In this document: piece after piece, positions 10,709-23,887 of the stretch | How the letters are laid out: every line of letters starts with the position of its first letter | Numbering within the stretch: position 1 is the stretch's first letter | IMG/VR virus record: IMGVR_UViG_3300029904_000008 | DNA from: an uncultured virus (IMG/VR IMGVR_UViG_3300029904_000008) | Lineage: Duplodnaviria > Heunggongvirae > Uroviricota > Caudoviricetes | DNA length: 23,887 nucleotides | Strand: one strand, 5' to 3' | Position numbers and translations under genes: made by a program | The notes under the pieces: generated by a model | What the model saw: only the letters and a program-made list of their open reading frames with translations | The model's database searches: none | Told to the model about the DNA's origin: nothing

Positions 10709-12190
10709 TTATCTTGGTTTAGAGTTTTGATCCTGTCGTTTTGGACTGGGATTATTTTTATCCCGGGTTCTCCTTGAAGATTGATTTTTATCAGCTTGCC
10801 TTTGCTTTTTCTTTATTCCTTCCTGAGGATCTCCATTATTTACTCCATTCTGATCCTCAAGTGAAAGTCTTGGTTCATCCTGATCAGGAGCATCATAACC
10901 CATTTCCCAAGCATATTGGGCCTGAGATATAATACCGGCCTTGTAAAGAAGATCAAGGTTTTGAATTTTGTATTGCCTTGCCTGTTGTACCTTAACTTCA
11001 TCTGATATAGTAGAGGTTCCCCAAGTAATGGTTAATCCCTTATTATTATACCCAGCAAGAAGCAATTCTAGAGAATATATCTTAGTTAAAGCATAACTTA
11101 CAATAACTTGAAAATTCTTTAACTGCGAGATAAGCTTAGATAACACTACGCCTGATCCTGATTCGGTATTTGAGGAATTAACTCCAATTATAGAACCATT
11201 TACTCCCAATCCATTGGCAACTGATTGTTGATTCATGTCCCATGGAGCATTTATATTTCCCAGCTCCTTAGTTGTAGAATTGAGATTAAATTCGGCATCA
11301 TCAATAAATCCTGTAACAATACCATCCTTAAGAGAATCCTTCATATTACGTTTTAAATCCCTAAGCAATCGATTTAACCTTCCCTCATAGGCATGTAAAG
11401 ATTCATTACCCTTTTGCATAGGTTTTTGGATCTTCGCTTCAAGGAATCCCACCATACCTACCATATCCATGATATGCTTGAAATTGATTCTCATATCTTG
11501 CTGTCCTTTGAGAGAATCAAGAGCAGTCATAAACGGTGGTATTCCATAGGGTTCATCTGTATCATTAAACATACCTATATAAAAATAGGTATCTGGGTTC
11601 AATTTGATAAACTGTTCCTTAACAGCTTTTAATCCCTGAGTTACCTTTTGGTAAGGTTCATACACTCCATTATTAGTTTGGTGGAAGTATATATTCTCTG
11701 GCTTAAGGAATAGGATAGTAGAGAGCCCATCTAAGTCTTCATTTGGTACTGCCTCTATAGATATTGCTCCACCAACCATTAATTGCACTAGCATCTTATT
11801 AACTAATCCATCCATACCTGAAGTATACCTGGACCAATTTTTAGATACATCCCTAAGATGATCTCTCATCCTTTCAGCTTCTTCATCGGTATTATTGGGG
11901 AAAGTTATAATATGCCCAGTATTGGTTAACTTGAACATATCCTGCAAAGCAATACCCACATCGGGATTTACCTTATACAATTTCCTTATCAGAGGAATAA
12001 CTTCCCTTCTAAAAGAAGGTGTTACCATAGAGGTCATATTAGATAATACGGCAACAAAATCTCCGTTATTATCCTCCGGTTCAGAAACTCTACCAGGAGA
12101 AATAGAGGCTATAGTTTTAGCCTCATCCTCTTTTCTCTTGGTATCAATAGGAGTAGGTTTTCTCCTAAAATAATCAAAAATATTTTTCAT
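10709..12190 (-). CDS. Portal protein (493 aa)
   Basis: Directly after terL with an ATGA overlap; motifs EPYGIPP, LLYKAGIIS and a low-complexity charged C-terminus typical of portals. Confidence 0.85.
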   Translation of the reverse strand: MKNIFDYFRRKPTPIDTKRKEDEAKTIASISPGRVSEPEDNNGDFVAVLSNMTSMVTPSFRREVIPLIRKLYKVNPDVGIALQDMFKLTNTGHIITFPNNTDEEAERMRDHLRDVSKNWSRYTSGMDGLVNKMLVQLMVGGAISIEAVPNEDLDGLSTILFLKPENIYFHQTNNGVYEPYQKVTQGLKAVKEQFIKLNPDTYFYIGMFNDTDEPYGIPPFMTALDSLKGQQDMRINFKHIMDMVGMVGFLEAKIQKPMQKGNESLHAYEGRLNRLLRDLKRNMKDSLKDGIVTGFIDDAEFNLNSTTKELGNINAPWDMNQQSVANGLGVNGSIIGVNSSNTESGSGVVLSKLISQLKNFQVIVSYALTKIYSLELLLAGYNNKGLTITWGTSTISDEVKVQQARQYKIQNLDLLYKAGIISQAQYAWEMGYDAPDQDEPRLSLEDQNGVNNGDPQEGIKKKQRQADKNQSSRRTRDKNNPSPKRQDQNSKPR

Positions 12191-14736
12191 TTGGGTAATA
12201 CGATTATGTTTTGTTTACCTTTCCTAATATGATTAGTTATGGCTTTACCCATAATATCATCATCTGCATATACCTCAGATTCCATATCTATATCCCCTGT
12301 AGTATTAGCTTGGTGTTTTCCCAAAGCTACTGGTCGGTTCATACTATCATAAATGAAAGTATAAGCTTCCTGAACGAAGAACGGGTCCTTAATAATACAG
12401 TTTTCTTCTCGAACATCCGTTTCCAATCCATTTATAATTACAGATCGGTTTTTGGTAGTAGTCATCCATCCTGGAGATTTATCCATTTCAGGTCTGGATT
12501 CTCCTTTCTTCTTTACCATTTTCTGATAGAAGTAAAGATTGGGATATCCTTCTGCTTGTAACCAGGAAGTAACTGCTAATCCCACATCATTGGATTCAGG
12601 AGCAATTACGGCATCATTAAATAAGGATCCAGTATCCCCAAGAAGTTTAGCATACTGATCTACTGCCATTCTTCCCTTATATACTACTTGTTCTTCTCCA
12701 TCCCTATCCATACAGGTGAAAGAAGAGTAGTCAGTTGCTCTACCAGTTGCAACATCCGCTCCTATAAAATATTCTTTATTAAAGTCTGGATCATTGAATC
12801 TTCGATATTGACCATTTAACTTAACCTGGATTGGAGGATAATCAGATAGGCAATCTTCTATTGATTTTATATCGGCAAGATCAAATACGGTATTTCCTGA
12901 TCCAAGGAAGTCTCCATCTACCTCTTGGGCTGTTCTTCTTGGGCCAAGAGCCCTTGCCATTTCATTGTACCAATTATCATCCCGTTCAGGGTGCATCCTC
13001 CAATATAATCGGATAGGATTAAAAGGATTGTTATGATTTAGTGAGTCAACCCACGTAGAGTGGTAGAAACCGCCTATGCCGTAGGGTGTAGAATTTACTA
13101 TGGCAGCTCCACCAGTATTATGATTTACGAAATTATTGGCAGTTATATAGGATTCATCATCCTCTACGTGTATATCATAAATTGTTCTAAGAGTTTTCTT
13201 TCTTAAATGTAACTTAGATATATATACTCTACTTTCTCTCTCTTCTATAATTCTCTTAATGAATTTACGAGCTTGTTTTTTATCCGGGTATAATTCCTTT
13301 GCAATCTCAGTATATGAAAATCCCTCCTTATACATTTCCAAGATTTTACCTCTTCTCAATAGATAAGGCAATCTATCACTGGATATACCTGAAAGTACTG
13401 CATTTATATTATACTTAAAACTTCTCTTAACATTATCAGAAACTTTAGAATATCGGAGGTTGGTTACATAATTGTGATCTCTACAACAATCTATGTGATC
13501 TACTTGATATCCTTTCGGTTTAGGGCCTATGAAAGCCTCAGCTACTAAAACATGGATATTTCTTTGGAATGTTTTAGATTTTTGAGAATTAAAGTAATTA
13601 CCAGTGTTTCTCTTAACTCCTCTTATTCTTAAACCAACCCTTAAATACCCATCCTTGTTATATCTACTAGGAACTTCACAAAATCCCTTTCTGGGATAAT
13701 TGGCATATACTTTACCCAGATTAGATACGAAATAATCGGGGAATCCCTCTATAGGCTTTAATATTTCCTTATCAGGACATTTAGTCTTCCGAGGAGATTT
13801 TATCTTATCCAATTTAGTATCTACCTGAATTATATTCAGATCATCTCGGATAATCTCCTCTACAGTTCTCCAACCTTGGGTAGTAAATAATCGATGTTTA
13901 GGAGTAGCTCCTAATTTTTTACCTCGATCATCAACTACTGTCCAAGTCTCCATTTTACCCTTATTCTGACTCCATAGGATCTTCTTCCAGGATCCGGTAT
14001 GGGTAAGGGTATAAAGATCGAAATGCTCCAAATTTACCACACTGGGTTTATTTGGGCAAAGATCTTTGATCCGTAATACCTTGGTTACAGGCCTTTTATA
14101 ATTTTTTAAAAAAGTGTCAGAATACTGTTTTACTATGAGTTTGGAGCTACCTTTTAGGCAACTAAGCGTTGGGAATGCTGCTGCCCATATCTGAGAAGCC
14201 CATCTTACAATTGCTGCCTCATCTATCACCAAAAGTGAAAGAGATTCTGAACGACCAGCCTCAGTAGATGTTGGTATAGATTCTATAAATGAACCATTAT
14301 CAAACTCAATCATACTGGCTGATCCATATTCTCCAGCTCTACCATTTATAATCGGTACTTGTAAATACCAAGGAAGATTTTTGTACATATACTTAATCTT
14401 CTTCAGTACCTTCTTTGCAGTTATATCCTTAATTGAGATAATATTCACCTTTTTATTTGGGTGATACATCGTCAACCAAAGGCAGTACATAGAGATTAAC
14501 TCTGTGATCCCTGCCTGTCGAAATTTAAGGATTATATTGAACCTGTTCTTTACGAAGTTATATAGGACCGATTTTTGATAGGGATATAGATCAAATTTCA
14601 CTTTACCTCTCACTGGGTGAACTACATAACAGAATATGCTAAAGAAAAAAACATCTTTTACTGCTAACGAGAGATTTTGTAGTTCTTGTCCAGTGAGAGG
14701 CTTATTACGTGTATCTTCAATTATCCTTTTTGCCAT
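12187..14736 (-). CDS. terL: Terminase large subunit containing an intein (849-aa precursor, ~501 aa spliced)
   Basis: Q motif LYPYQ, Walker A variant LKFRQAGITE, GRSES, Walker B LVIDEAA, coupling motif NSTPYG, nuclease IGADVATG...DYS and terminal DDDIM. Confidence 0.95.
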   Translation of the reverse strand: MAKRIIEDTRNKPLTGQELQNLSLAVKDVFFFSIFCYVVHPVRGKVKFDLYPYQKSVLYNFVKNRFNIILKFRQAGITELISMYCLWLTMYHPNKKVNIISIKDITAKKVLKKIKYMYKNLPWYLQVPIINGRAGEYGSASMIEFDNGSFIESIPTSTEAGRSESLSLLVIDEAAIVRWASQIWAAAFPTLSCLKGSSKLIVKQYSDTFLKNYKRPVTKVLRIKDLCPNKPSVVNLEHFDLYTLTHTGSWKKILWSQNKGKMETWTVVDDRGKKLGATPKHRLFTTQGWRTVEEIIRDDLNIIQVDTKLDKIKSPRKTKCPDKEILKPIEGFPDYFVSNLGKVYANYPRKGFCEVPSRYNKDGYLRVGLRIRGVKRNTGNYFNSQKSKTFQRNIHVLVAEAFIGPKPKGYQVDHIDCCRDHNYVTNLRYSKVSDNVKRSFKYNINAVLSGISSDRLPYLLRRGKILEMYKEGFSYTEIAKELYPDKKQARKFIKRIIEERESRVYISKLHLRKKTLRTIYDIHVEDDESYITANNFVNHNTGGAAIVNSTPYGIGGFYHSTWVDSLNHNNPFNPIRLYWRMHPERDDNWYNEMARALGPRRTAQEVDGDFLGSGNTVFDLADIKSIEDCLSDYPPIQVKLNGQYRRFNDPDFNKEYFIGADVATGRATDYSSFTCMDRDGEEQVVYKGRMAVDQYAKLLGDTGSLFNDAVIAPESNDVGLAVTSWLQAEGYPNLYFYQKMVKKKGESRPEMDKSPGWMTTTKNRSVIINGLETDVREENCIIKDPFFVQEAYTFIYDSMNRPVALGKHQANTTGDIDMESEVYADDDIMGKAITNHIRKGKQNIIVLPK
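13117..14160 (-). mobile_element. Intein (348 aa) in TerL with NUMOD4-HNH homing endonuclease and HTH
   Basis: Starts at Cys (FPTLS|CLKGSS); block B TPKH; block F IYDIHVEDDESY; ends HN|T. Inside: KPIEGFPDYFVSNLGKV (NUMOD4), HVLVAEAFIG...VDHIDCCRDHNYVTNL (HNH) and EGFSYTEIAKEL (HTH). Confidence 0.93.
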
Positions 14737-17255: not shown

Positions 17256-17714
17256 TTATCCGATAGTTAAGATTATTGTTGGGTATTTTAGCATTTCTGC
17301 GTAGAGTTTTTTGAAGGTTACAGTAGAATTTATAACTTGTCCAACTACTTTATTCTGGCCGACAAGTATACAACCCTCGGTATCCTTTGCGGTATTTCCT
17401 ATATGGATGAGTACTCCTTCATACCCATCTACATTTAGAAGTCTTGGGAGTTTACCTTGACAGAAATTATAGGTTGCTCTTCGGGAAAACCGAGGAGAAA
17501 CTACATTCATAGTAACTTTGTATTTCCCTTTCGGGATTGCAGTTGCCCCTTTGATCTTGAGATCCTTAATTTTCTGTAAGGGCATACCCTGGACTAATCC
17601 CCTATCGGTATCTTCCAGAGTATCACAGAAGTAAACCCCATTGAGATAGAGTTTGCCGATCGTATAGGTACTTTTCTTCGCTATACGATCAATCCTAATG
17701 TTCAGTTGTCTCAT
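17256..17714 (-). CDS. DUF5675-like protein, candidate peptidoglycan-acting enzyme (endolysin)
   Basis: Recognised pattern YTIGKLYLNGVYFCDTLE...TAIPKGKY...VLIHIGNTAKDTEGCILVG, with a His...TxGC motif like L,D-transpeptidase-type enzymes. Confidence 0.75.
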   Translation of the reverse strand: MRQLNIRIDRIAKKSTYTIGKLYLNGVYFCDTLEDTDRGLVQGMPLQKIKDLKIKGATAIPKGKYKVTMNVVSPRFSRRATYNFCQGKLPRLLNVDGYEGVLIHIGNTAKDTEGCILVGQNKVVGQVINSTVTFKKLYAEMLKYPTIILTIG

Positions 17715-17873: not shown

Positions 17874-18245
17874 ATGAAAAAAGAAAAAGTAATATTAAAT
17901 GCAGGTGACAAAATGATATACTTTGCACCGCTATTTAAGCCCAGTATGCAAACCATCAAGGAAGTAACTGATCACAACATCCTCCTTGATAACCAGGTAA
18001 GGATTAAAATCAAACCCAACAAATCCGGAGAATTCGAAAGGGTTACTGGATTGGGATTTGTATTGCCCATAAATGAAGAATCTCAAAAGGTACTTGATGC
18101 TGCCAATGCCTATTATAAAATTGAGGATCTTCAATTAAGTGAACTGTATCAGAAAATCATAACCGATAGGGATCAAGATGCAGTAGATCGAATGCTCAAA
18201 ATAAAAAGGTTATACGATAAGATAATGAAATTGATAACAGAATGA
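17874..18245 (+). CDS. Hypothetical protein (123 aa)
   Basis: First ORF after the promoter; starts a chain of ATGA overlaps. Confidence 0.75.
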   Translation: MKKEKVILNAGDKMIYFAPLFKPSMQTIKEVTDHNILLDNQVRIKIKPNKSGEFERVTGLGFVLPINEESQKVLDAANAYYKIEDLQLSELYQKIITDRDQDAVDRMLKIKRLYDKIMKLITE

Positions 18246-18454
18246 AAACAGCACTGATAATAATAGGGTTTGCTTATATAGCAGCCCTATTCCCTACTAT
18301 TGCCCAAGTATACTACCAAAGGAAAGAACTTCACTGGAGGATACCTAAATTAATTCATTTCCTAAGTGTTTGGCTTCTTATGCCCTGGTTTATGCTTTGG
18401 AGAATTTTATATTTCGAACCGAAAGAATATATTAAAAGGAGGATGAGAAAATGA
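18242..18454 (+). CDS. Small two-TM membrane protein
   Basis: Two hydrophobic segments and a basic tail; ATGA overlaps on both sides. Confidence 0.7.
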   Translation: MKTALIIIGFAYIAALFPTIAQVYYQRKELHWRIPKLIHFLSVWLLMPWFMLWRILYFEPKEYIKRRMRK

Positions 18455-18684
18455 GAGTACACTTAAATAATAAAGATGAGATAAAGGGATATTCCGTCGG
18501 TATAGGAACTATTGCCTTATTCCTAATTCCTTTAATGATCCTAACTGCAATCTGTACGGCATTGTTTATGCCCCTATTTTGGGGATTCCTTATATACCTG
18601 AAAAAGGATAAACCCGTTCAACAATTGGTTATGGGATTAATGGCAGTACCTTGTATAATAATGTGGATTTCTTGGTTTATATGA
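18451..18684 (+). CDS. Small membrane protein (2 TM segments)
   Basis: Long hydrophobic stretches; ATGA overlaps. Confidence 0.7.
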   Translation: MRVHLNNKDEIKGYSVGIGTIALFLIPLMILTAICTALFMPLFWGFLIYLKKDKPVQQLVMGLMAVPCIIMWISWFI

Positions 18685-18920
18685 AAAGAGTAGAATTACA
18701 TTATTCCCCAGAGCAATTAGGGGAGATTAATAAGTTAATAAGGGATAGGCTCATTAAGGAGATAAAAGGGATGGGTATCCTAAGGGGTTTGCCTTCCGAT
18801 CAAATTGAGGATGAGATTAGGGTAGTGAATCATTACTTTGATGATATTAATACTATCCTGGGTGAGGGAGAATTTATTGCCCTTGAAAAAGGAGGAATTA
18901 TTGATGAGATGCTCACTTAA
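18681..18920 (+). CDS. Hypothetical protein (79 aa from MKRVELHY)
   Basis: The ATG at 18681 overlaps the previous TGA and is preferred over the TTG start at 18651. Confidence 0.7.
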   Translation: MKRVELHYSPEQLGEINKLIRDRLIKEIKGMGILRGLPSDQIEDEIRVVNHYFDDINTILGEGEFIALEKGGIIDEMLT

Positions 18921-18986
18921 ATTGTTCAGTTTTGTTATAATGATGTTGGTGATCCTAATTTGATTGGGAAATTAGATTAGGAAATT

Positions 18987-19050
18987 AGAGGATCCTTATC
19001 TATAGGTTTTATCCAAAACTTCCGGGGTAAGGATCCTCTTTAATGTGTGT
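18987..19050 (+). terminator. Long stem-loop terminator of the rightward operon
   Basis: AGAGGATCCTTATC...GGTAAGGATCCTCT with inner GTTTT-ATCC-AAAAC, followed by a T/G-rich tail. Confidence 0.65.
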
Positions 19051-19242
19051 TGTGTTTTGTGTAGGTATATATTTTGGGAGAGTGTCCCTTGTCTGAGGTC
19101 CCTTTATCATATTAGTCAAAGTTGTGGTAGTTGTGGGGATTGGAGAACCCCTTTAATATATAGGGAGGGGCCAGGTAGTTGCGGGGGCGAACGGTTGCAG
19201 TGGTCTGTTAAAAAATAACAAAAAAATAGGGGACAAACATAA

Positions 19243-19521
19243 TCAAAATAAATAAATGTGATACACAAACGTTTTACTTTTTTTCAATGTTTCACGTGAA
19301 ACAAATTTAACTTTTATTTTAAGAATTTCTAAAAATAGGTTAATTATGTCCGTTGTATAATCGTAGTGTCCGGCCTTATATGGCATGGTTAAATAACCTT
19401 TTTTTAGAACCTTTTTTTCGGTTAAATTGTTGAAAAAAATTACCTCAATTTTTTTCAATCGAGAAAAACGGCGGTTTTGTTCCGCCGTTTTTCCCAAAAA
19501 TTCAAGTGGTGTGCGTGTCAT
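19243..19521 (-). CDS. Doubtful ORF (92 aa) overlapping hairpins and parS
   Basis: Has an ATGA overlap with the upstream gene, but contains a terminator-like hairpin and the parS palindrome (read as VSRET). Confidence 0.3.
   Translation of the reverse strand: MTRTPLEFLGKTAEQNRRFSRLKKIEVIFFNNLTEKKVLKKGYLTMPYKAGHYDYTTDIINLFLEILKIKVKFVSRETLKKSKTFVYHIYLF
19288..19303. promoter_or_regulatory. parS: Perfect chromosomal-type parS site TGTTTCACGTGAAACA
   Basis: Exact match to the 16-bp palindromic consensus bound by chromosomal ParB/Spo0J. Confidence 0.85.
19430..19458. repeat. Perfect 12-bp inverted repeat TTGAAAAAAATT-ACCTC-AATTTTTTTCAA
   Basis: Read directly from the sequence. Confidence 0.8.
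19463..19493 (-). terminator. Bidirectional intrinsic terminator GAAAAACGGCGG-N7-CCGCCGTTTTTC
   Basis: Perfect 12-bp stem with T-runs on both strands, ~25 nt after the stop of 19518..19874. Confidence 0.75.
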
Positions 19522-19874
19522 TTTTTTGCAATTTCAAGTGCTTTTTGCAAAATTTTTTTGTTAACATCTTTCATATTTTCAGAGCAAACCGACTGCAAAG
19601 TATAATCAGTAACGGCGTACACTTGTTTATAAAGTTCATTAAATTGTTTTTTTGCTTTTGCGTCCGTGGGTGCATTGCAAAGCGTTTCCGCAAAAGCAAG
19701 TATCATTTTTCTGATTTTTCGTCTAAATACTTTTGCTTGTGCATCAGTCATTCCGTTAATTAATTCTTTTTTGAACACAGAGCGGTGTGAATTTTCAAGT
19801 GATAAATTAATACCAGATTTTGCAAGATTCGCAAAAATTGTGTCCATTACATTGTTTGTTGTTTTTGTTGCCAT
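19518..19874 (-). CDS. Basic helical hypothetical protein (118 aa, MATKTTNNVMD...), candidate immediate-early gene
   Basis: ATG at 19874 has a typical A-rich leader downstream of the promoter at 19942-19973; the longer start in the ORF track spans the promoter. Confidence 0.8.
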   Translation of the reverse strand: MATKTTNNVMDTIFANLAKSGINLSLENSHRSVFKKELINGMTDAQAKVFRRKIRKMILAFAETLCNAPTDAKAKKQFNELYKQVYAVTDYTLQSVCSENMKDVNKKILQKALEIAKK

Positions 19875-19941
19875 AATTGTAAATTTTTTAATTGTTAAAC
19901 TTGAATTTGTGATTGTGTGCTTTTTTCTCATTTGCACGTTG

Positions 19942-19973
19942 CAAAGGTACGCATTTTTTTTTATTCTCGCAAA
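19942..19973 (-). promoter_or_regulatory. Bacteroidota primary-sigma promoter (TTTG-N20-TACCTTTG)
   Basis: Minus strand TTTG cgagaataaaaaaaaatgcg TACCTTTG, with A-tracts upstream. Confidence 0.88.
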
Positions 19974-20563
19974 CATTTTCAAAAGTTTTTTCAAAAAATA
20001 TTATATTCTTGATTTATATCAAAAAAATTTTTCAAAAAAGATTTTTTAATATCAAAAATTTTGAAAATCAAAAATTATTTTTATATACGTGCGTATGCGC
20101 ATACATATATTATATATTTAACAACTACTTAATAAACTTTACAGAACTTAACAAATCACTAAAAATTTACAAAAATTTAATGAACAAAAGGAATTTTTAT
20201 ATTTATCATAATTTTTGCAGACATCAAAATTTGTGAGAATAAAAAACAAACATATAGAGTGTGGGTATGTGCCCCGCCTCCGGGGAGCCGGCATGGTGGT
20301 AAGTATCTTAGGGGTATGTCTTATATTAAGGTATGTGATTGTGATATAGGATAATATGGATTTAAGGCCATCCCCTCCCCCTATATTTATCCATTGCCTT
20401 TGGGGTAAGTAGGTACATGGGCCTTATTATATTATTAGAATTAGTATATAAGGATTTAAGGCTTAAGAGTGTATCAAAGTTAGCGTTTCAAAGTTAGCGA
20501 ATATGCTAGTAATTGGGGTAAGTATATAAGTAGTAATTTATGGTAAGTATTTAAGTATACACT

Positions 20564-20596
20564 AGAAAGCTTGCCCAGTTTCTCAACTAAGCAAGC
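20564..20596 (-). terminator. Intrinsic terminator with GAGA tetraloop
   Basis: Minus strand GCTTGCTTAGTT-GAGA-AACTGGGCAAGC followed by TTTCT; the G-U pairs work only on the minus strand. Confidence 0.7.
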
Positions 20597-20680
20597 CCAT
20601 TATGTTTAACAATTAAAATTGAATGTATATTACCCGGGATATATCACATAGGCCAGGTAATAAAAGCAAACAAATAGATA
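20564..20680 (-). ncRNA. Candidate 3'-UTR-derived small RNA (hairpin, U-rich seed, terminator)
   Basis: Hairpin at 20628-20662, an unpaired segment containing UUUUAAUUGUUAAAC, then the terminator hairpin; inferred from structure only. Confidence 0.3.
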
Positions 20681-20682
20681 GG

Positions 20683-21183
20683 TTATAATATGTAATAGTG
20701 ATATACTGTAGCAATACGTGTAATAGGATTATAATTTCCTATGTGCATGTTCGAATTTGGTATTTTAAGCTGATTTGGGAGATTATCCCAGTCGTATTCT
20801 TGGTTTGGAGCTTCTTGGAATTTTTCGAAGTCATCCTCCCAGATTTGAGAGTAAGTATAAATAGTAAGGACATCTGGGAAGAAGTCCATTTGTAATAAGG
20901 GGAAATCTCGTTGGTATATATAAAGTTGTTCTAGACCTTTTAGGACAGTTTCGAAATTTTGAGGATTTAATATATTGAAGTCCTCTGGTACGGTTTGATG
21001 GTAATAGATAACCAGTCTGTTTCTATTCTGGATTAGGTTATAGAGGTCATCTAGGGATAAGAAAGAGTATTTCTTTAAATAATCGGATAAGTTTATACCC
21101 TGTAACTGAAGAGATTCTAGAATGTTCTCGAGATGTATTTGAGTGAAATATATGGTGTGGTTGTTGAATTTGATTGTAATCAT
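20683..21183 (-). CDS. Hypothetical protein (166 aa)
   Basis: ATG ORF in the operon behind promoter 21686-21716. Confidence 0.75.
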   Translation of the reverse strand: MITIKFNNHTIYFTQIHLENILESLQLQGINLSDYLKKYSFLSLDDLYNLIQNRNRLVIYYHQTVPEDFNILNPQNFETVLKGLEQLYIYQRDFPLLQMDFFPDVLTIYTYSQIWEDDFEKFQEAPNQEYDWDNLPNQLKIPNSNMHIGNYNPITRIATVYHYYIL

Positions 21184-21213
21184 AGTGGTGAAGTTTTTAA
21201 AGGGTTATTAATA

Positions 21214-21651
21214 TTAGAAGGTTTCTGTGATGAAGATATAGAGTTGAGAGTTAAGAGGATTAGCGGATACTTGAAGATCGTTATCGGAGATTTCCCAGAT
21301 TTGTTGGGCAATATGGTTAGCCTCGACCTGAGAAAGAGTTTGGTCGTTTAGTGATATATAAATTAGGATTTGTGATTGTTCATCGGTAATATAGGATTTT
21401 AGATAAATGTGATTAATATTAAGAGAAGGCTTGGCATCGACGATTGATATTATGTAATCGATTTGTGTTGAAAGAAGTCCGGGAATGTCTGGGTTATCGA
21501 ATGCAATGTTGTTTTCGAAGGTGAGAGGGAAATTGAATTGAGGCAGTGGTGAACCAAAGTAGTTGGTTGCAAGGTGCGTGGCATATGGTTTATTGTCTAA
21601 AATACTTGCATAATTAGTTATATACTGATTAATTTGCTTTTCCATACTCAT
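21214..21651 (-). CDS. Hypothetical protein (~145 aa from MSMEKQ)
   Basis: Start moved downstream of the promoter (ATG 21651 or 21645). Confidence 0.7.
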   Translation of the reverse strand: MSMEKQINQYITNYASILDNKPYATHLATNYFGSPLPQFNFPLTFENNIAFDNPDIPGLLSTQIDYIISIVDAKPSLNINHIYLKSYITDEQSQILIYISLNDQTLSQVEANHIAQQIWEISDNDLQVSANPLNSQLYIFITETF

Positions 21652-21685
21652 AAAATTTAATTGATAAAACATAATTTTCACGGTG

Positions 21686-21716
21686 CAAAATTACGAATAA
21701 TATTTTAATTTGCAAA
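21686..21716 (-). promoter_or_regulatory. Bacteroidota primary-sigma promoter (TTTG-N19-TAATTTTG)
   Basis: Plus strand CAAAATTA at 21686-93 and CAAA at 21713-16. Confidence 0.82.
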
Positions 21717-21719
21717 GCT

Positions 21720-22800
21720 TTTTTATAAATATGTCCTTTATTGGGCTGGTGGTGAAGGATATCTCAGGATTGAATAGTAAATCTGGGGTGAGTATGAAAG
21801 TAGATATGTTTTAGAGGTACGTATTATGGGTTAGTAAGAAACTTTGCTTAGAAGAGCGTAAGTTTTTATTTACTAGTATTTATATGGCGTATAACTCGTA
21901 TGTTTGCTAGTATTTGGCAATAAATTGGTATCCCCAAGGGCCTTAATTCCTTAAAAATTTGAGGATAGGAAGGTAAAATTACACCGAGGATTTAATAAAT
22001 TATGGCTCTTTGGGGTACCTTGTTATTTATAATTTGTATAAATAGGCAAGCATTTTGAAGGCCTGAAAAGTAAAAGGATTTTACAAAATTAGGCAACTTG
22101 GTTAGCGATTTTAGTAAAAAATATTTACATATTTAGGCAATTCGGGGCAATAAAAATCGATGGGGATCCTTGAATTTGGGGTGCCATTTTATTGCTAGGA
22201 TCCCCAAAAATGGCATCTAGGATCTCTAATTTCCCCAAGATCCCCAAAATTTGAAGGAAAGCTATTCTGGCAATAGTGGACTAGGGTTCTGGCAATAGAA
22301 ATTTGGAACGTAGCCTTTCCGAGCACTTTATATATAATATATAGTAAAAAGGTAATGGGGATTTAGGGGATTTGGGGTGCCAAAATTGCAATTTTATGGA
22401 GGGTCAAGAGCTGCCTTTTTGTAAAATTGGGAAATTAGACATTAGCTAAATAGTATAGTAGAGATAGCTGGATGTACAGAGCTCCTTTCCCTAAAAATTT
22501 TTAGGATCACAAAAGCAGGATCCCCGCGCGACCCCCGCCCCTAGATCACAGTTAGTTTGTTATTATATTAGTATATATTATATTGGGTATTGGAGGATTG
22601 TGATTATGAGGTATTGATAGTATTCAGATTGTATGATAGCATTAGATTATGAATGTATTATTGTATTCAGGTATGTATATGTGTACCTTTATATGTGATA
22701 GGTATTATATAGATTGTTATTATATTTTTGTTTTTGTGTTTGGGAGGTGGGTATACACTTTAATAGGATCTCTAGGGATTGGTGATGTTAGAGATCCTAT
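21720..22800. other. ~1.1-kb non-coding region with clustered short direct and inverted repeats (candidate origin, pac site or genome-end region)
   Basis: No credible ORF. ATTTGGGGTGCCA x2, TTCTGGCAATAG x2, TAGGCAA x3, several GATCCCC/GGGGAT, and palindrome AAAATTGCAATTTT. Confidence 0.55.
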
Positions 22801-22801
22801 T
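22762..22801. terminator. Stem-loop just downstream of 22805..23149 (13-bp perfect stem)
   Basis: AATAGGATCTCTA-N14-TAGAGATCCTATT; lacks a U-tract on the minus strand. Confidence 0.5.
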
Positions 22802-22804
22802 GTA

Positions 22805-23149
22805 TTATTCTGGGTTCTGTGTTATGAGTTCGTTGTTTAGGTTGTGGTAGGAGAATTTTCGTATTTCGTCGTACCTATCTAAGTATTCCTCATAGGATTT
22901 TATTTGGAGATACTTAGTGAGGATCCAGTATCCGTATTCCCTTAGTCCTGCTTGTACTCCCTGGTCTTCGATTAGGAGACTGAAATATCTATATAGATCT
23001 TGGTTTTCCCAGTATATTAGGGATAAATCCGAATCTAACATTGAGGATATTATTTCTTGGAGAAGGGGTTGATCTCTTTTAGGTACTGATAATATCCAAG
23101 CCCATGTTGGGAAGGCTTTCTGAGCTAATTGTATTTCTTGTTTGTTCAT
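22805..23149 (-). CDS. Hypothetical protein (114 aa)
   Basis: ATG ORF in a tightly packed small-gene cluster. Confidence 0.75.
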   Translation of the reverse strand: MNKQEIQLAQKAFPTWAWILSVPKRDQPLLQEIISSMLDSDLSLIYWENQDLYRYFSLLIEDQGVQAGLREYGYWILTKYLQIKSYEEYLDRYDEIRKFSYHNLNNELITQNPE

Positions 23150-23162
23150 TGTTTATAAGTAT

Positions 23163-23330
23163 TTAGGATTTGGGTAATGTGATTATTCCTTGTTCGGCTA
23201 GCTGCTCTATTAGGTTATCGAGGATTTTATCGATTCGATCTAGTCTGTCTTCGATTACCTTCAGTCTCTTAGCATCGAATGGTAAGGGTTTTGCCGGAAT
23301 AGGTAATGGATTGTTCTTTAGTTCTTTCAT
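23163..23330 (-). CDS. Small coiled-coil hypothetical protein (55 aa, MKELKNNPLPIPAKPLPFDAKRLKVIEDRLDRIDKILDNLIEQLAEQGIITLPKS)
   Basis: Translated by hand (shorter than any ORF in the track); fills the gap exactly, with an ATGA overlap with 23327..23623. Confidence 0.75.
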   Translation of the reverse strand: MKELKNNPLPIPAKPLPFDAKRLKVIEDRLDRIDKILDNLIEQLAEQGIITLPKS

Positions 23331-23623
23331 AATTTATTGAATTGAAATGTTATTACTATTGGTATTCTTGGCATTTGTCTTGAGGGATGATCCATAGTTA
23401 CTGTTATTTCCCAGGTTTTAATGGTTTGAGATACTGAGCCATTTAGTATGATTAGTCTCTTACCTATGGTTAGGTTTATTATCTTGGATAACCTGGGATT
23501 TTCAGCTCTTTTGGTTATTTCTGATAGGAGTTTATCCTTGTCAGCCCGGGTTAATTCGTAATTATAGAGATCCTTGATTGTATTGAATAGGATCTCTATA
23601 TCTTGGATTCGAATGTTAATCAT
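23327..23623 (-). CDS. Hypothetical protein (98 aa)
   Basis: ATGA overlaps on both sides. Confidence 0.75.
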   Translation of the reverse strand: MINIRIQDIEILFNTIKDLYNYELTRADKDKLLSEITKRAENPRLSKIINLTIGKRLIILNGSVSQTIKTWEITVTMDHPSRQMPRIPIVITFQFNKL

Positions 23624-23871
23624 AGGTTTTGGTTTTCTGGAGCATTTATTATGTTTTCTGATACGTTGTCACTGAATAGGATAGTTTTTACTTCCTTGTG
23701 GGTATCGGTATCGATAATCATTAGATGGTTTTCATACCCGTCCAGTTCGGAAGTATCGATTTTACTGAAGTATTCTTTGACACTAGAAGCAATTATGGGT
23801 TCTAAATAGTCCGCATAGTCATGAGGAGAATCATAATCGATTTGGAATAGGATAAATAGGTACTTTTTCAT
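23620..23871 (-). CDS. Acidic hypothetical protein (83 aa)
   Basis: ATG ORF with an ATGA overlap. Confidence 0.75.
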   Translation of the reverse strand: MKKYLFILFQIDYDSPHDYADYLEPIIASSVKEYFSKIDTSELDGYENHLMIIDTDTHKEVKTILFSDNVSENIINAPENQNL

Positions 23872-23887
23872 CGTTCTGGTTCTGTTT

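Follow-up and report, generated by a model that had tools for sequence, protein, structure and literature searches.

A 23,887-base stretch of DNA from an uncultured virus of the class Caudoviricetes (IMG/VR record IMGVR_UViG_3300029904_000008; hereafter the window) carries at 19288–19303 the 16-bp palindrome TGTTTCACGTGAAACA, an exact copy of the chromosomal-type parS site. Our favored reading, which we hold tentatively and a little short of calling probable, is that selection keeps this host-type centromere site in the coding DNA of gp92, a small accessory gene of the phage, and that the site represents centromere piracy by means of a cis site only. A hijack of the host ParABS system by the phage, which was the proposal of the initial annotation of this DNA, is plausible from the sequence and would be of a kind already known from phage phi29.

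The 16-mer matches the parS consensus of chromosomal ParABS systems, TGTTNCACGTGAAACA (attributed in PMC10197239 to Livny et al. 2007), at 16 of 16 positions, and it is the sole match in the window at three or fewer mismatches, a level at which shuffled windows gave a mean of 0.06 matches and at least one match in 6 of 100 shuffles. The claim that the palindrome is exact is thus borne out. So is the claim that a chance exact match is unlikely: the exact parS occurs in at least 137 IMG/VR stretches and its reversed control (the same letters backwards) in 2, so that an exact parS in viral DNA is rarely due to chance, in a survey that used one control word and a collection that contains many fragmentary records and perhaps some host DNA. 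Nor is the segment an assembly chimera with host DNA, an objection anticipated in the initial annotation, since the same site recurs in the same gene in three other independent assemblies (G001, G002, and OJKW01000091.1). Scanning many windows will meet a few chance 16-mers, but the recurrence of the site in a single phage gene across four independent assemblies, as well as in contigs of further sequencing runs, the two occurrences of the reversed control, and the lack of any match to the region longer than ∼20 to 60 nucleotides in 401 genomes of the sampled host family (discussed below) leave an artefact, whether chimera or pure chance, a negligible prospect. The 16-mer is real and probably selected.

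An earlier placement of the site outside coding DNA did not survive analysis. The site is intragenic, lying within the 92-codon accessory gene gp92 on the minus strand (19243–19521), where it is read as the codons (TT)T GTT TCA CGT GAA ACA, specifying F V S R E T. The sequence evidence indicates that gp92 is a real gene: the frame is open in all four genomes that carry it, while each other frame has 8 to 11 stops over the same span; the sole indel in the four-genome alignment, near the start, is 3 nucleotides long and in-frame; and the variable columns fall at codon positions 1, 2, and 3 in the ratio 14/12/34, with synonymous-only change in 25 codons and amino acid change in 18. A reading of 19243–19517 as a lineage-specific noncoding insert (a “moron” made of a terminator and a parS-overlapping promoter) was ruled out, because the 92-codon frame is a conserved gene. 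Homologues of gp92 form 106 clusters, at 54 to 100% identity, in a collection of 5.8 billion proteins, and many lie on contigs of ∼85 kb. No match to gp92 was found in PHROG or Pfam. Its predicted structure (mean predicted local distance difference test score [pLDDT] 76.2) has a disordered N terminus followed by a β-β-α-β-β unit, with FVSRET in a predicted β-strand, and Foldseek searches of the PDB with this model and that of gp79, the gene that follows gp92 in the relatives, returned generic small α/β folds only (E ≥ 2e-3).

The four gp92-bearing genomes that we compared are the window, G001, G002, and the metagenome contig OJKW01000091.1 (locus L409), and parS is exact in all four. The aligned region, bounded by the stop codon of the upstream gene and the gp79 start, comprises 285 columns and is essentially gp92; pairwise identity is 83 to 93% and 217 columns are invariant. 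The site sits in the longest invariant run of the alignment, 37 columns compared with 17 for the next longest. This block (19284–19320) consists of parS with 4 nucleotides on one side and 17 on the other, and corresponds to 12 consecutive gp92 codons, KIKVKFVSRETL, that show no change, even synonymous, in the four genomes, while elsewhere third positions vary (34 of 92 across gp92). For the six third positions of the site, which were set in advance, the chance that all would be unchanged is ∼0.04. In addition, given the peptide FVSRET, phage codon usage would spell parS with a probability of 5e-4, or about 1 in 2,000. Contigs from four further runs in four studies, at 80% likeness, extend the comparison: among the differences listed none falls within 19286–19320, the nearest lying at 19282, 19285, 19321, and 19325, with many beyond. 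In these contigs depth piles up at the block and contigs break at 19291, 19313, and 19320, as would be expected for a block common to diverged strains that co-occur, an observation that we regard as supportive rather than conclusive.

The most serious alternative to selection for ParB binding is that the site is a by-product of coding. On this account, gp92 needs a β-strand KFVSRETL, the codons of the founder happened to spell parS, little synonymous change has followed owing to a short divergence time or to constraint at the RNA or codon level, and ParB may bind without consequence. The site does lie within a real gene, and the protein is under evident constraint there, with VSRET present in 99 of the 106 clusters, FVSRET in 97, and the whole C-terminal third of gp92 highly conserved. 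The threonine of the motif is replaced by K, I, or M in five clusters and two others are altered elsewhere in the motif, so the exact parS must be broken in all seven. Moreover, only four DNA sequences are available, the test on the six third positions reaches just P ∼ 0.04, and the site is single and missing from sister clades. Against this account stand the roughly 1-in-2,000 chance of the parS spelling given the peptide, the excess of exact parS over the reversed control in viral contigs (at least 68-fold), an invariant run more than twice the next longest in a region where 24% of columns vary, and the four further runs, with none of their listed differences in the block. On balance we consider a coding by-product unlikely, though it deserves to be taken seriously.

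The phage itself appears to have no partition genes of its own. From 1 to 15.4 kb, the minus strand of the window encodes tail fibres, the major head protein, a protease, the portal, and the large terminase; no tRNA and no Rfam family was found in the window. Its nearest records are G001, a 15.6-kb fragment, and G002, which is 85,266 bp long, 100% complete by CheckV, and 87 to 93% identical to the window in DNA. A Pfam scan that covered 94 of the 114 open reading frames (ORFs) of G002 revealed a baseplate and tail-tube module; DnaB helicase, Toprim primase, a split PolA, a RecA-like protein, a gp32-like single-stranded DNA-binding protein, SbcCD, and a 5′–3′ exonuclease; and thymidylate synthase, dUTPase, a C5 methylase, and one HTH_3 protein, with many ORFs unassigned. 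Among these ORFs there was no integrase, ParA, or ParB. Six-frame searches of G002 likewise were negative for ParB_N and HTH_ParB at E up to 1 and for AAA_31 at E up to 0.1, and the sole CbiA match, 14.6 bits and below the cut-off, lies within the RecA-like gene; control genomes matched in each of these searches. Thus, the initial observation that no ParB is in view extends to a complete relative. The ∼85-kb contractile-tailed phage agrees with what is published for the candidate family “Flandersviridae” (PMC8008677), whose genomes have a median length of 85.2 kb and encode a contractile tail and DnaB/DnaG/PolA, followed by ∼20 kb of ORFs without assigned roles; this comparison was by description rather than by a tree with named members. 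The family is a large one in IMG/VR, where a capsid-protein relative is encoded by 473 stretches. Two genes of this phage look interrupted. The large terminase (849 residues, 12187–14736) has both terminase and HNH-endonuclease PHROG matches, which suggests an inserted homing element or intein, and in G002 a DUF559-containing ORF separates the two ORFs that make up PolA (49376–53002), where a weak match to intein splicing is also seen.

The unassigned content of G002, including its one HTH_3 protein, bears on a further alternative, namely that some protein other than ParB, encoded by the phage or the host, recognises the palindrome, or that the palindrome functions as an RNA hairpin, its likeness to parS being coincidental. 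We judge this very unlikely, given the 16-of-16 match to the ParB consensus. The complete G002 genome has no second copy at three or fewer mismatches that would suggest a phage regulon, and the RNA hairpin of the palindrome is weak (−4.7 kcal/mol, z −0.9 and −1.5), with 20 to 30 of 200 shuffles folding equally well.

Conservation of the site in related phages, on which the initial annotation had made its proposal depend, is found within the lineage of the window and ends there. While all four genomes of the lineage carry the exact site, parS was not found at three or fewer mismatches in MT121964.1 (capsid protein 67% identical), the complete genome G003, or G004, nor at two or fewer mismatches in any of 49 records with a capsid protein ∼80% identical, 30 of which are at least 90% complete. 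One of those 49, G005, shows 100% identity in the capsid protein but is a fragment that does not reach the gp92 region. The gene has a similarly narrow distribution: gp92 matched only G002 among 49 records searched, no homologue was found in GenBank phages, and DNA encoding a homologue was recovered in IMG/VR from G001 and G002 only and, in a metagenome scan with a gp79 alignment, from OJKW01000091.1 only. Neither parS nor gp92 was recovered from 48 related records, 31 of which are at least 90% complete, or from G003, G004, or MT121964.1. By these searches the parS-bearing gp92 is an accessory of one lineage and not a family-wide feature. Because parS is confined to the gp92 lineage, it is not a strategy of the whole phage family.

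A Bacteroidales host is presumed from the literature, from relatives of a DUF5675 protein, and from the gut-metagenome origin of the DNA. CRISPR (clustered regularly interspaced short palindromic repeats) spacers assign the “Flandersviridae” to Bacteroides and Parabacteroides (PMC8008677). The DUF5675 protein (window 17256–17714) has its relatives overwhelmingly in Bacteroidales genomes among the best 80 of 129 stretches; it also occurs at 58 to 67% identity on otherwise unrelated gut phage contigs (481 IMG/VR stretches). Runs that carry the window DNA are chicken-gut metagenomes of one study (X1–X4, word share 0.91–0.99), more distant runs with related DNA come from other bird and faeces studies, and none of the public runs listed is RNA data. 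As a presumed host group we sampled the family of G055 (Bacteroides graminisolvens), in which 61 of 81 genomes have parS at one or fewer mismatches, usually in one or two copies, compared with 6 of 81 for the reversed motif, and all five genomes tested have ParB_N. The host consensus assumed in the initial annotation is therefore in use in the presumed host family. Most of the parS-like sites carry one mismatch and the exact site is present in 8 of the 81 genomes; with its perfect consensus, the phage site thus equals or betters most of those in the sampled genomes. In two genomes with both on one contig, the ParB gene lies 500 to 630 kb from parS sites, and in the Bacteroides genomes G054 and G055 the parS-like sites are paired ∼9 kb apart, unlike the usual layout of parS beside parB. 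ParABS homologues and parS clusters are also reported for a Bacteroides among mouse-gut strains (PMC10197239).

Capture of the site from a host chromosome was considered and rejected: when 401 genomes of the sampled family were searched with the 285-nucleotide region, the only matches were 20 to 60 nucleotides long (best E 1e-4), and in many of these parS lay at the centre. No match to gp92 was found in the same 401 genomes, a set without a positive control.

Exact parS sites in other viral records are also seldom accompanied by ParB. Any ParB_N match was present in 3 of 96 parS-bearing IMG/VR records (100 loci), two of these above the cut-off, and in 1 of 22 records that are at least 90% complete. 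The survey thus suggests that phi29 is not an isolated case, with exact parS far commoner than the control word and its carriers almost never encoding ParB. A PHROG scan covered the ORFs from loci of ten parS-bearing records. Seven small contigs among them, four with inverted terminal repeats, have loci with one to four exact parS sites (for example L007, L015, L023, L040, L047, L069, and L077) and encode a phi29-type DNA polymerase, packaging ATPase, and head and collar proteins. Two loci, L025 and L065, have five exact parS sites each, packed between the small and large terminase genes. A parS cassette common to phages was not supported, as BLAST against the 137 parS-bearing loci gave only short matches around the motif.

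These observations lead us to propose how the site might act. Host ParB probably binds it in vivo, and we lean toward the view that the site is under selection for ParB binding. In an infected cell, host ParB dimers would nucleate at the phage parS, close as cytidine triphosphate (CTP)-bound clamps, and slide onto the neighboring phage DNA over the early region, marking each phage genome as a ParB partition complex open to host ParA. The most likely use of such a complex would be host-ParABS-assisted, plasmid-like positioning and inheritance in dividing cells while the phage genome is unexpressed or slowly replicating, that is, in a carrier or pseudolysogenic state. That the benefit is indeed segregation or positioning, rather than something else, is considerably more doubtful than binding itself.

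The closest parallel would be phi29, whose genome enters the spore by means of host Spo0J and the parS sites of the phage; this phage is described as having five parS sites, with Spo0J implicated in segregation of the genome into the prespore (Meijer et al. 2005, as cited in PMC2731898). In the phi29 sequence (NC_011048) we find four sites with one mismatch and one with three, and of the one-mismatch sites three lie inside genes 10, 15, and 17 and one beside a bidirectional terminator. Both are virulent phages without a ParB of their own that carry host-consensus parS within genes, and the exploitation in cis of a host partition protein by phi29 is what we propose for the gp92 phage. However, the five sites of phi29 are imperfect, whereas the gp92 phage has one perfect site that occurs only in a single accessory gene. 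The phages also differ in type, phi29 being a protein-primed podovirus of 19 kb that infects a spore-forming Firmicute and the gp92 phage a myovirus of ∼85 kb. The known gain for phi29 is access to the prespore, but spores are not formed by Bacteroidales, and no sporulation-linked feature was seen in the gp92 phage. If the presumed hosts are correct, the benefit must therefore differ from that of phi29.

Other partition systems share parts of this arrangement. Chromosomal ParABS uses the identical 16-bp consensus, and its site may also sit within a gene, as in Bacillus subtilis, where a parS lies inside spo0J/parB; in contrast, its sites are on the ParB-encoding chromosome, usually in clusters close to the origin, rather than on a virus without par genes. 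The phage-plasmids P1 and N15 are stably inherited as episomes by means of their own ParA and ParB, which act with their own, different centromere sequences. They have in common with our proposal a ParB-bound centromere for episomal inheritance, but no parA or parB is present in the complete relative G002. In work reportedly done by Lin and Grossman in 1998, a cloned chromosomal parS stabilised unstable plasmids in a Spo0J/ParB-dependent manner, so that one chromosomal parS in cis would suffice for host-dependent partition of an extrachromosomal replicon; that was an engineered construct, whereas the present case is natural, in a phage, and known from sequence alone. The mobile element SGI1 stabilises itself by hijacking the parABS of an IncC plasmid, its helper (PMC10954446). 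Like the gp92 phage it carries only the cis site of another's partition system, though it is an integrative island rather than a phage and the pirated system is plasmid-borne, not chromosomal. Our literature search recovered the phi29 and SGI1 work but no report of host-type parS in a phage that infects Bacteroidota or any other nonsporulating host.

Several observations weigh against centromere piracy. There is a single site per genome, in the window and in G002, and G002 shows no enrichment of half-sites (7 compared with 9.7 ± 3.1 in shuffles). The site and gp92 are missing from sister records and are thus dispensable for such phages. The genome appears lytic: neither an integrase nor a repressor switch was recognised in the Pfam content of G002. 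The C5 cytosine methylase of G002 might also modify the CpG within parS. With VSRET conserved across nearly all clusters, part of the conservation is at the protein level, and the comparison of gp92 DNA covers four genomes plus the differences listed in the further contigs. Finally, the invariant block could reflect another overlapping signal, such as an internal promoter for gp79.

This last possibility can be stated as an alternative in which the 37-nucleotide block exerts local control, serving gp79 and the convergent junction as an internal promoter or a roadblock. Either ParB or RNA polymerase alone would act at the block, and the identity of the site as parS would allow ParB-dependent repression of gp79. 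The block reaches 17 nucleotides past parS on the upstream side, and the gp79 start is 47 nucleotides downstream of the site in L409. The Bacteroides −7 promoter motif is TAnnTTTG, and the block contains on its coding strand a match to it, TAAATTTG, which extends into the first two bases of parS. There is also precedent for such control, since in Pseudomonas aeruginosa parS-bound ParB represses adjacent promoters (10.1101/151340). However, gp79 begins 3 nucleotides after gp92 in G002, so the two could be cotranscribed with no need for a promoter, and the window keeps the block although it has lost gp79. The motif TAnnTTTG is found at the starts of the 114 G002 ORFs 10 times in antisense and 7 times in sense orientation, with 56 to 57 copies per strand in G002; because it is equally common on both strands, the TAAATTTG match may be chance. 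A phage promoter motif of CGTGAAA after TAnnTTTG, considered as the source of half the palindrome, was rejected because it occurs only twice in the window and once in G002. Local control is thus, in our judgment, decidedly improbable as an explanation of the block.

Were the site bound by ParB, the benefit might instead come from harm to the host, with tens to hundreds of phage genomes draining ParB–CTP clamps from the host centromere and disturbing segregation or division. The phage site is perfect, while the sampled-family genomes mostly have one or two sites, usually imperfect, and a high phage copy number would be expected because the phage encodes a complete replication module. Yet no data point to such a benefit, the site is missing from most relatives, and loss of ParB is tolerated in many bacteria. 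We therefore regard a ParB decoy as improbable.

The surroundings of the site are organized as a short minus-strand operon that meets plus-strand genes. Upstream of gp92 lies a 137-residue gene (19518–19931, minus strand) whose stop codon shares the sequence ATGA with the start of gp92, an arrangement in which cotranscription and translational coupling of the two genes are probable. A homologue of this gene is present in the sister genomes G003 and G004 at 38 to 39% identity, and in G003 it is directly followed by an unrelated 84-residue gene. In the relatives G001, G002, and OJKW01000091.1 the 79-residue gp79 begins 3 nucleotides after gp92, and a GGGGACAAA/TTTGTCCCC terminator marks its end. 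Searches of PHROG and Pfam gave no match to gp79, and its model is a small α/β sandwich (pLDDT 85.5). Alignments with the relatives reveal that gp79 and half of its terminator were lost from the window through a deletion of ∼250 bp between two CAAAC words, leaving a junction with CAAAC microhomology at 19234–19238, where contigs of other runs have 260 to 318 extra letters. Within the 5′ part of gp92 (codons ∼10 to 20), a GC-rich hairpin with flanking A and T runs (19463–19493) folds at −19.8 and −24.7 kcal/mol (z −5.0 and −5.6), its stems kept and its loop varying in the four genomes. It looks like a bidirectional terminator as judged by its folding; a σ70/terminator scan flagged no terminator.

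Four small plus-strand genes without family matches (17874–18920) converge on the gp92 operon, with parS ∼370 bp past the end of the group, and this gene order is common to G001 and G002. Just past this plus-strand island, noncoding 19145–19240 is ∼80% identical in G003 and G004, which lack gp92 (L174 3302–3399 and L187 4354–4451); no Rfam family matches this stretch, and its predicted fold is no more stable than those of shuffles (z −0.27). Over ∼10 kb (window 18000–23887; G002 19000–29000) the GC skew is positive despite minus-strand called genes and is opposite to the rest of the genome; the parS gene lies at the edge of this zone, and the skew sign flips near the site with no clean origin signal. 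Long stretches at 20240–20680 and 21690–22800 are free of ORFs under codes 11 or 4 or with TAG read as glutamine, and are rich in short G runs and in odd GGGGTAAGTA-like and GGGGATCC-like repeats.

A section of Benler et al. 2021 (PMC8008677) raises the possibility that phages of this kind, which are abundant in the gut, persist as episomes, though no partition or lysogeny genes were seen. A host-type centromere in cis would be a minimal, gene-free answer to this puzzle. A broader idea, which we consider rather improbable, is that such piracy is a general and largely unnoticed strategy, with virulent phages of many phyla carrying host parS sites and no ParB of their own; in gut Bacteroidales it would supply the missing partition function for long-persisting “lytic” phages and extend the spore trick of phi29 to the carrier state. 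For the gp92 phage, because ParB is a CTP-gated sliding clamp, the effects of its loading on phage DNA (spreading, silencing, and engagement of ParA) would be directly measurable, and synonymous recoding of six codons would destroy the site while leaving the protein unchanged.

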